Positions 18,001 to 21,000 of a stretch of 64,000 bases of DNA are shown here, one piece after another. Position 1 is the stretch's first letter. Every line of letters starts with the position of its first letter. The position numbers were made by a program. Source of the DNA: Enterobacteria phage VT2phi_272; sequence record NC_028656.1; one strand, 5' to 3'.

Positions 18001-21000
18001 GTTTCTGGCTTGAAATAAATATAACTTGCGGTTATTTTCATGTAAATACCGTCGGTGCTTTTTTAAGGACGAGAAATTATTACTTAACTGATTTTTAAAG
18101 TGATTTATTTTTTAAGGGGACAGATAACAGGAGGGGATATGCAAAGAAAAACCCGGCGCATGGGCCGGGCTATTTATCTGGTCCTGTTCTCATTCAGTAG
18201 AGTAGGGGCCAAGAAATCGCACTCCGTTGAAGTGAATAAGATGAGAAGGTGCATCAGCCACCCATACCTCTGTTTCCCATGCGATTTCACCAAGATATCG
18301 CCCCATGATGGAGCGATTTGGAAAAGCGGTCACATAGACAAGTCCGGCTGTTGATCCGGCAAACAGCCTGGCAAGCTCAGCATGCCGCTTCCCATCAACC
18401 GGTCCATGACTGGTGACAGACTCAACCAGTAGCAGCCAGTTTTTCGCAGTAAAATGTAGCACCACATCTGGCATTTTACCGTGTGAATCCACATCAACAC
18501 CTAGCCCGGCCAGCAGTGGAGCGTCGAAGTAGCCCCACTTTTCGCCAGTGTCGCCAGCATAGACCAGCACGCTACCCGGAGCAAAACGTGGGGCGAAGTC
18601 CTCTATTATGGCACGGATAAGTTCGCTGTGCTCGCCGGGACTGAGGGTTATTTGCTGGCCCGCAGCAATTTCAACAGGGATACGATTCTGTTCGCGCTCC
18701 TTAGCATAGCGGGTAACCAGCGTTTCACGCTCGGCTAAATAGGTTGCAAGGCTATCGTGCCATGCCGGGCTGCCGAAAGTGCGTAGCATGGACAGAGCAG
18801 CAGGTTCGATCTGATAAACAGCCTTCGGGCTGTTCACTGGGCGATCGGGCTTGTCCGGATTGTAGAGGGCTACTCCAGCAGCGCAGAACTGATGCATAGA
18901 CTGGCGGCGGAATGTCTCACGAGTATTGGGTGCGTAGACCTTGCCGTAGTGCTCCCGAACCCAATTCATGATTGGTGTAATGCCCACAAGCGGATTTTCC
19001 GCGTCGGCCCATGCTTTTCCCGGTGTGAGGTTCAGGAGTGCCAGCAAACACAAAGCAGAACGCTCATTCTGCTGCGCTCTGGGCAGGCCTAAGGATGCTA
19101 TAATTTGCTGAGCGGCCTCAATATAATCATTTTGGTTGTTCATGCAGTCAGAGCTCCTAGCTTAGCGTCAATATGTTCTTGCGTGAGAGTTTCTTGTTGC
19201 ATAGCCCACTTGCCAAGCTCTATCAGAGTGTCACGGCTTGGGTACTTAATCATCTTGAGGTCGGTTGCATTGACCTGTGTATGCCCGTTGAAGCGACGGA
19301 AATACTTATCCACTGCGGTAGTGTTCAGGAACACGGCCAAGCCACGGGCCAGCGCCTCGGGTAACCCATGTTTGTTCTCATGAAACACGTTCATGTGATT
19401 TTCAAATCCCAACACTGAATACTCACTGAAGGTAGCAGGATCAACGACGCTTGCTACCACTCGGCGCTTTTCCTCCTTCGACGAGAAACGACGCACCACA
19501 CAATAAAAACCGTTCGGGTAAAGCCACTTTTCTGTCTCGTCGTTGCGCATGATTGCGTTGGGTTTCTTCAAACCTTCCACAGGCCAGACAGTGCTACTCA
19601 TACTCAAATGGCTCGGGTAGATCAGGGGAACAGTTCCTTCTTCTGGCATGCTGCGCAAATGAGCTTTCAGTCGGAAATCAACTATCGGTCCGGTCGATAC
19701 CTTCACGCCAATATCAGCCAGCGAACATTGTACGGCAGATGATAACTCAATGGTGCTTTTCTCGAGCGTGGTCGGCACATGAATAAACCGCTCCGAATCG
19801 TCCGGGTACACAATCTGGTCAAATGGGTGTTCGTAGGTGACCAGGTCAAAAAAGCTATCATCGGTCGAAGTTGTGACTGTAACAGCCTCCTGACGGCCTC
19901 CACGCTCCAGGCGGATGATAATATTTTCCTGCAACACATCGTCATCCCTGAAAGCTTTGCTACGTGATTCGAACAAATGAATATGGCGGATTGCTGCCCG
20001 CTCAAGTATGAAATTACGGAACGGACGGTAATACGGTCCGTTGCAGAAACTACGTGGGATTATGGCCACTATCTGCCCGCCAGGTGCAACCTCACCTACA
20101 GCCAGTGCAACAAAGGCGGAATACAGATTTACCGTCTCGATACCGACAGTGCGAAGAGCCTGCCGGTGGGCTGACTGGCTATTGATCTTCTTGTAAGGCG
20201 GATTAAGTATTGCATGGGTATAACCTCGATCCTGTAGACCTTCGGCGGTTGCCAGCTCAATATAATCCCCTTCGATGATGCGGGGCGTCACTCTCCTGTA
20301 CCCGGTTAAGTGCTTCGCAAGGTGACCACACAGCTTTTTGTCGATTTCGTAGGCTGTTGCCTCGACAGACTCAAAGCCAAACTCGCCAACCAGCCAACGG
20401 TCGAGGAAGGCGCAAGACAGTGCGCCTAAACCAGCGCCTGCGTCCAGTAGACGGCAAGTTTTCATTGTGCTCGGTGGAAACAAGGAGGCCATAAAACGGG
20501 CCACGCCAGAAGGCGTCATGAACTGGCCGAACTCTGCTTTGTGTTTACGCGCGGTACGGGGAGACAGCTCGCGACGCACGCTGTCTGCGACGTCTAGCTT
20601 TTGAAGCATAACTAATCCTCTTTACGTGGCATGATGATGCCAACGTGCTTTTGACATCCTCCACATTCTTCAGGCGTGAAGGATGTCAAATCACTCTGTG
20701 AGCTCAATCAAAAGTCTCATCATTCCACTGCGATTTGATGACCTTTCCGACAAACTGGCAGTTTTCGTTACACTCAATCATGTCGAATCGTGGGTTGAGC
20801 GGCTCCAGGTACGCTTTACCGCTCTCACGAATGAATCGTTTGAAGGTAAATTCATCGCCGTTCATTCGGGCCACGCAAAAATCGCCATCCTCGATTTCCC
20901 GTTCAGGGTCAACGAGTATCAGCATACCTTCAGGGAAGCTGGGTTTACCACCCTGCGGTGCGGTCATTGAATGCCCCTTGACCTCCAGCCAGAACGACCT

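Follow-up and report, generated by a model that had tools for sequence, protein, structure and literature searches.

Fang et al. 2012 (Nat Biotechnol) is reportedly the primary paper on EcoGIII, the restriction-modification (RM) system closest to the locus described here. In the passages of PMC6602927 that deal with this system and cite Fang et al. 2012, its two proteins (M and R) are stated to methylate and cleave CTGCAG, to protect against lambda-like phages, and to change the expression of ~1,900 genes. The m6A modification was found at 100% of CTGCAG sites in O111 lysogens (PMC6602927), and in the O145 strain RM13514 CTGCAG methylation reached 98.8%, as against 0% in a strain without the prophage genes (PMC3893438). 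Where these two papers touch upon the endonuclease, an R gene reported to be 100% identical to that of C227-11 is called biochemically active (PMC6602927, PMC3893438); the section of PMC4288162 concerned with EcoGIII states that transfer of a pESBL plasmid is reduced by the system in recipient cells. The system has a known impact on the methylome and transcriptome of STEC outbreak strains, limits the entry of phages and plasmids, and is a marker of one Stx2a phage lineage.

The DNA analyzed here is the whole 64,000-nt stretch of Enterobacteria phage VT2phi_272 (NC_028656.1), referred to below as the window. The best explanation of its RM locus as a whole, to which we assign a probability of about 0.93, is that it is EcoGIII: a functional two-gene Type IIP system, isoschizomeric with PstI, on a PA2-like Stx2a prophage at argW. 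The pair has already been published and is routinely annotated; the copy in the window is identical to published ones and is not new.

Identity and domain structure of the two proteins

The features of the locus are collected in Table 1. M is identical at 489/489 residues to ORF31, and R at 317/317 residues to ORF30, of P13374, an Stx2 phage from the 2011 O104:H4 outbreak; the statement in the original prediction that a PstI-type system has been reported on Stx2 phages is thereby borne out. The 2.6-kb stretch holding both genes matches that of the Stx2a phages PA2, PA8, F765 and others at 100% identity, and that of the O104:H4 phages P13374 and phiON-2011 at 99.9%; in the draft C227-11 entry, 316/317 residues of R are identical. 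The CTGCAG specificity, which had originally been inferred, is now backed by the published EcoGIII data in the relevant parts of two papers, including lysogen m6A levels of 98.8-100% (PMC6602927, PMC3893438).

Table 1. Features of the RM block and its surroundings (window positions)
Feature	Position	Strand	Length	Details and basis
Perfect operator-like palindrome ATAACTTGCGGTTAT	18021-18035			Overlaps pL-like promoter; pattern search
pL-like promoter	18018..18046	(-)		TTTACA, 17 nt, TATATT; promoter scan
Intrinsic terminator closing the cI-M-R block	18150..18171	(-)		AGCCCGGCCCATGCGCCGGGTT then TTTCTTTG; terminator scan and fold
R (R.EcoGIII)	18190..19143	(-)	317 aa	ORF table
ATGA overlap of M stop and R start	19140..19143	(-)		Plus strand reads tcat
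AGGAG Shine-Dalgarno of R	19158..19154	(-)		Within M, 10 nt upstream of R start
M (M.EcoGIII)	19140..20609	(-)	489 aa	ORF table
AGAGGA Shine-Dalgarno of M	20621..20616	(-)		Strong; 6 nt before M start
cI-M spacer	20610..20703	(-)		Hairpins and M Shine-Dalgarno; fold, promoter and terminator scans
Smaller hairpin	20624-20646	(-)		In cI-M spacer
16-bp-stem hairpin	20650-20690	(-)		Directly after cI, no T-run
cI repressor	20704..21417	(-)	237 aa	Pfam Peptidase_S24 9.5e-29 and HTH_3 8.2e-10
OR region	21423..21488			Two operator-like half-palindromes, 21423-21437 and 21471-21485; pattern search
PR-like promoter	21460-21488	(+)		TTGACA, 17 nt, AATGAT; faces cro; promoter scan

The motifs of M appear in the order typical of gamma-class N6-adenine methyltransferases: motif X (FGQFMTP, aa 27-33), motif I (DAGAG, aa 56-60, within LLDAGAGLG at about aa 53-62), motif IV (NPPY, aa 136-139, encoded by AAT CCG CCT TAC at nt 20204..20193) and a C-terminal target-recognition region of about 250 aa. 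M scores above the cut-off of the Pfam Eco57I profile PF07669 (3.3e-09, 37.5 bits; cut-off 25.3) and matches the PADLOC model MTase_II (PDLC03227) over its full length at 5e-248, so the class proposed from the NPPY motif stands. A search of NCBIfam with M returned sub-threshold matches only, and a PDB sequence search a single weak one (2ozv, 2.5e-4).

The original prediction had also taken the 317-aa ORF to be a PstI/BsuBI-type endonuclease and had proposed a profile search by which this could be judged. That search agrees, as both domains of the family are present in R at full length: the N-terminal helix-turn-helix DNA-binding domain PF17728 (BsuBI_PstI_RE_N, 1.2e-54; R aa 7-143, profile positions 3-139 of 140) and the C-terminal catalytic domain PF06616 (BsuBI_PstI_RE, 4.6e-61; R aa 155-307, profile positions 1-153 of 154). 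The PADLOC model REase_II (PDLC03420) matches R over its full length at 1.6e-168, and the SdaI structure 2ixs aligns with it end to end at 1.2e-77; no NCBIfam model matched R. With two separate, adjacent genes each matching Type II models, the pair has the composition of a Type IIP system.

The catalytic motif of R consists of PD at aa 225-226 and a conserved glutamate, E241. Across 81 aligned endonucleases, SdaI included, P225 and E241 are invariant (81/81) and D226 is present in all except one sequence (80/81), which has a Y. Where SdaI has the lysines K251 and K253, the 80 other sequences all have T244 and H246, and since the two residues are common to every one of these relatives they represent a feature of the clade and not decay. 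Around the catalytic glutamate (R residues 225-246, window 18421-18471), 80/80 relatives read ESVTSH where SdaI reads EAVKSK. Judging from this alignment, the third catalytic residue of the R clade may differ from that of the solved SdaI structure.

Position of the pair within the immunity region

On the map of phage lambda, rexA and rexB lie between OL/pL and cI. The RM block of the window was predicted to occupy the same position, and it does: M and R lie on the cI strand between the OL/pL-like site and the OR/PR region, and are closed by a terminator. The gene immediately upstream of M, on the same strand and separated from it by 94 nt, is the one named cI in the annotations of phages PA2 and P13374, as the prediction had it. 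Allowing at most one mismatch, the palindrome ATAACTTGCGGTTAT occurs four times in the 64-kb window, and three of these matches are at 18021, 21423 and 21471; the latter two, with one mismatch each, flank the PR-like promoter. The presence of operator-like sites on both sides of the RM pair places it inside the immunity region, the left edge of which is marked by the pL-like/OL-like site ~100 nt beyond the RM terminator.

The translational coupling and the terminator that had been proposed are likewise found, the former both in the ORF table and by direct reading of the sequence, where the ATG of R (19143..19141) overlaps the TGA of M (19142..19140). The terminator, recovered by the terminator scan as a hairpin with a T-run, begins 19 nt past the stop codon of R; running from 18171 to 18150, it has an 8-bp stem with six G-C pairs followed by TTTCTTTGCA, and folds at -24 kcal/mol (z = -2.98). 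In the diverged variant phage F004 it is kept, with a C-G to U-G change, and similarity to the window stops shortly beyond it.

The spacer between cI and M folds at -40.6 kcal/mol (z = -3.85). The promoter scan gave no consensus promoter in these 94 nt, in a setting where the scanner performed at chance level (7 sites vs 5.7 expected), so that an internal promoter for M and R is possible; a promoter-like site within M (19945..19918) was not above background. The terminator scan found no minus-strand terminator-like site in the spacer, and an Rfam search returned no match in M, R or the spacer. Variant F004, which is 95% identical, has almost the same spacer sequence, and the spacer hairpin exists in only three sequence variants, the stems of which are identical. 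In relatives from which the RM genes have been deleted the stem is retained with a different loop, which indicates that the hairpin belongs to the cI side.

Prophage context

The window, a PA2-like Stx2a prophage at argW, is collinear with PA2 except for the position of one IS element. The host tRNA-Arg (CCT) gene argW, at 1320-1394 (-), forms the left prophage junction, and the PA2 annotation places stx2A/B ~7 kb to the right of the RM locus. Three phage tRNA genes (Met/Ile-type CAT, Arg TCG and Arg TCT) lie at 27183-27434 (+), upstream of the stx2 position. The left arm of the prophage carries a second intact adenine methyltransferase ORF with a DPPW motif (3589-4215 (-), 208 aa); its counterpart in PA2 is split by an IS, and the equivalent IS copy of the window is at 32903-34220.

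Between a Rha-family ORF (16682-17329) and the pL-like promoter, Rfam matches were obtained for the C4 antisense RNA (17384-17471 (-), 77.1 bits; gathering score 45) and the Hfq-binding RNA isrK (17496-17571 (-), 58.7 bits; gathering score 50). These matches identify the seemingly ORF-free 860 bp left of the pair as a module of the isrK-C4-antirepressor type, and in phage F004 it is annotated as such. The non-coding segment 17622-17938 has counterparts of 91-95% identity in unannotated DNA of phi80, HK225, 933W, Min27 and many Stx1/Stx2 phages, and in one phage the match overlaps an annotation as 'N-like antitermination protein'. The segment could be a nutL-type or leader element.

Distribution, linkage to cI and natural deletions

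The exact M sequence is present on at least 1000 contigs. Among 5,426 complete E. coli genomes, 140 match the 2.6-kb stretch, with at least 80% of it covered in 134, and the match is always on the chromosome. Relatives of R were found on at least 598 stretches in a set of contigs with one genome per species. The best 80 of these range from Chloroflexota and Cyanobacteria to Serratia, with 69-94% identity in R and 54-84% in M. Of these 80 loci, 78 were informative, and in every one of them M directly precedes R in the same orientation, ending at or abutting the start of R; a relative of cI was found near the cassette in none of the 80. In Serratia nevei the cassette follows a resolvase, and the gap between M and the gene upstream of it is only 9 nt, which suggests read-through expression there too. 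As the M-then-R arrangement is widespread across phyla without cI, the cassette is, on these comparisons, an old, widely exchanged unit that was captured by one lambdoid phage lineage.

No phage copy of the cassette lacks the spacer or the C-terminal half of cI. The RM pair is present in 96 phage records, and so is the spacer; this cI, at 99% identity or more over cI and the operator region, accompanies it in 72 of the 96, while 23 carry a different N-terminal half of cI. Homology between the variant F004 and the window extends only from 18171 to 21115, which puts the left junction at the terminator.

In phage PhiR12_3 and five E. coli genomes, window positions 18507-20649 are deleted, so that M is gone completely and R has lost its N-terminal two thirds. 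The deleted segment is replaced by ~160 bp of unrelated DNA in PhiR12_3 (3524-4058 of locus L085) and in E. coli JNEC-KY177 (locus L086), and the deletion derivatives keep a C-terminal R remnant of 100 aa, which continues to carry a BsuBI/PstI endonuclease annotation. None of the natural deletion variants has lost M alone. An active endonuclease would be expected to leave only variants of this kind, in which M and R are lost together.

CTGCAG sites in the window

A count of CTGCAG sites had been proposed together with the original prediction. The window contains 11, ten of them in the prophage, compared with 16.9 ± 4.1 in dinucleotide shuffles and a Markov estimate of 24.3, and the shortfall is as large or larger for many other palindromes; avoidance of CTGCAG by the prophage was therefore rejected. 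The longest CTGCAG-free stretch, 23 kb, is not significant (P = 0.085). Six of the sites (at 1328, 24506, 42382, 44745, 46335 and 46443) are part of the 8-mer CCTGCAGG, the SdaI/SbfI site, a share far above the 1/16 that random flanking bases would give. This excess probably reflects the codon context C|CTG|CAG|G.

Proposed expression and function

Since M and R follow cI on the same strand and no canonical terminator separates them from it, they are most likely co-transcribed with cI in the repressed prophage, and this transcript would end at the terminator beyond R. The full methylation of CTGCAG in lysogens (PMC6602927, PMC3893438) bears indirectly on such expression. M, as the first gene of the pair, has the strong AGAGGA site, whereas R starts within the stop of M behind a less well-spaced AGGAG and would rely on that site and the ATGA overlap; such an order, together with the relative strengths of the ribosome binding sites, would favor the synthesis of M, and hence methylation before restriction when the phage lysogenizes an unmethylated host. 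M.EcoGIII would then methylate the adenine of CTGCAG on both strands, and R.EcoGIII would cleave CTGCAG that is unmethylated. In the lysogen the pair is thus expected to block unmethylated phages and plasmids and to set CTGCAG methylation genome-wide, both of which are published effects of identical proteins, as given in the parts of the EcoGIII reports cited above.

The stable 16-bp hairpin could attenuate or process the cI-M-R transcript. That it has a regulatory function of its own, acting for instance as an RNase III site or partial attenuator to set the ratio and timing of M and R expression relative to cI, appears to us quite improbable; if true, it would let a prophage Type II system without a C protein establish itself safely in an unmethylated host. 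A role of the conserved cI-M hairpin as a regulator of RM expression is possible, and is the only loosely novel thread of this analysis. The spread of the cassette without cI, its linkage to cI and the hairpin in phages, the joint deletions of M and R, and the lack of CTGCAG avoidance are new findings, though minor ones.

Alternative explanations

Co-transcription with cI has a competitor in which the pair is an autonomous moron that has its own promoter, merely adjoins cI, and is expressed independently of the cI (PRM) transcript. The occurrence of the cassette in many phyla without a nearby cI, and next to a resolvase in Serratia nevei, indicates that its expression does not require a phage immunity operon, and the strong hairpin between cI and M would also suit a self-contained unit. 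This is nevertheless unlikely in our estimate: the 94-nt spacer yielded no promoter-like site, with the scanner at chance level, the hairpin is not followed by a T-run, in phages the cassette never occurs apart from the spacer and the C-terminal cI half (96 records each), and the short gap in Serratia is suggestive of read-through in that host as well. We thus continue to favor co-transcription with cI. A further question is what the pair was selected for. Addiction behavior has been established for several Type II systems by Kobayashi and colleagues, and under this explanation the main selected role would be to hold the prophage in place, with residual R cutting the DNA of cells that lose it as methylation is diluted, and not defense. 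This precedent in other Type II systems, and the fact that the only natural loss variants found have lost M with most of R and never M alone, speak for addiction; the passages on EcoGIII in PMC6602927 and PMC4288162, which describe direct demonstrations of defense against lambda-like phages and plasmid entry, speak against it as the main role. We regard it as doubtful, yet as the more credible of these two competitors, and the addiction and defense roles are not exclusive.

The assignment of EcoGIII as a functional PstI isoschizomer could itself fail if the endonuclease were inactive or of another, SdaI-like specificity for CCTGCAGG, so that the locus would be mainly a methyltransferase. SdaI, the closest relative with a solved structure, indeed recognizes this 8-mer, its two lysines are replaced in R, and more than half of the CTGCAG sites of the window (6/11) lie within CCTGCAGG. 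The replacements are, however, shared by all 80 non-SdaI relatives and are thus a property of the clade; an R gene that is, in the relevant passages of two papers, reported as 100% identical to that of C227-11 is called biochemically active (PMC6602927, PMC3893438); and lysogens are methylated at all CTGCAG sites, beyond the 8-mers (PMC6602927, PMC3893438). Such a failure of the endonuclease is very improbable, and the identification of the locus as functional EcoGIII is retained.

Comparison with known systems

The nearest relative of the locus is the EcoGIII of the O104:H4 prophage (P13374, phiON-2011, C227-11), with which it shares the gene order cI, M, R, the spacer and the terminator; it differs in that the host prophage is here a PA2-like, O157-type Stx2a prophage at argW, and in small changes to the left of the terminator. 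With the PstI/BsuBI Type IIP systems it has in common both Pfam endonuclease domains, a gamma-class m6A methyltransferase and, according to the literature, the CTGCAG site, the likeness being one of family profile. Those systems are chromosomal (Providencia, Bacillus), whereas the pair described here consists of prophage genes. The PstI genes are divergently transcribed, while M and R form an overlapping tandem pair.

R shares with SdaI (2ixs) the two-domain layout and the PD...E motif, and differs from it in the recognition of the 8-mer CCTGCAGG by SdaI and in T244/H246 of the R clade standing where SdaI has K251/K253. Lambda rexA/rexB occupy the same slot, downstream of cI on its strand, within the immunity region and with a terminator before pL, and the logic appears analogous in that a defense function would be expressed from the repressed prophage. 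RexAB acts by abortive infection through membrane depolarization and the present pair by DNA restriction and methylation, and the two have no relation in sequence or mechanism.
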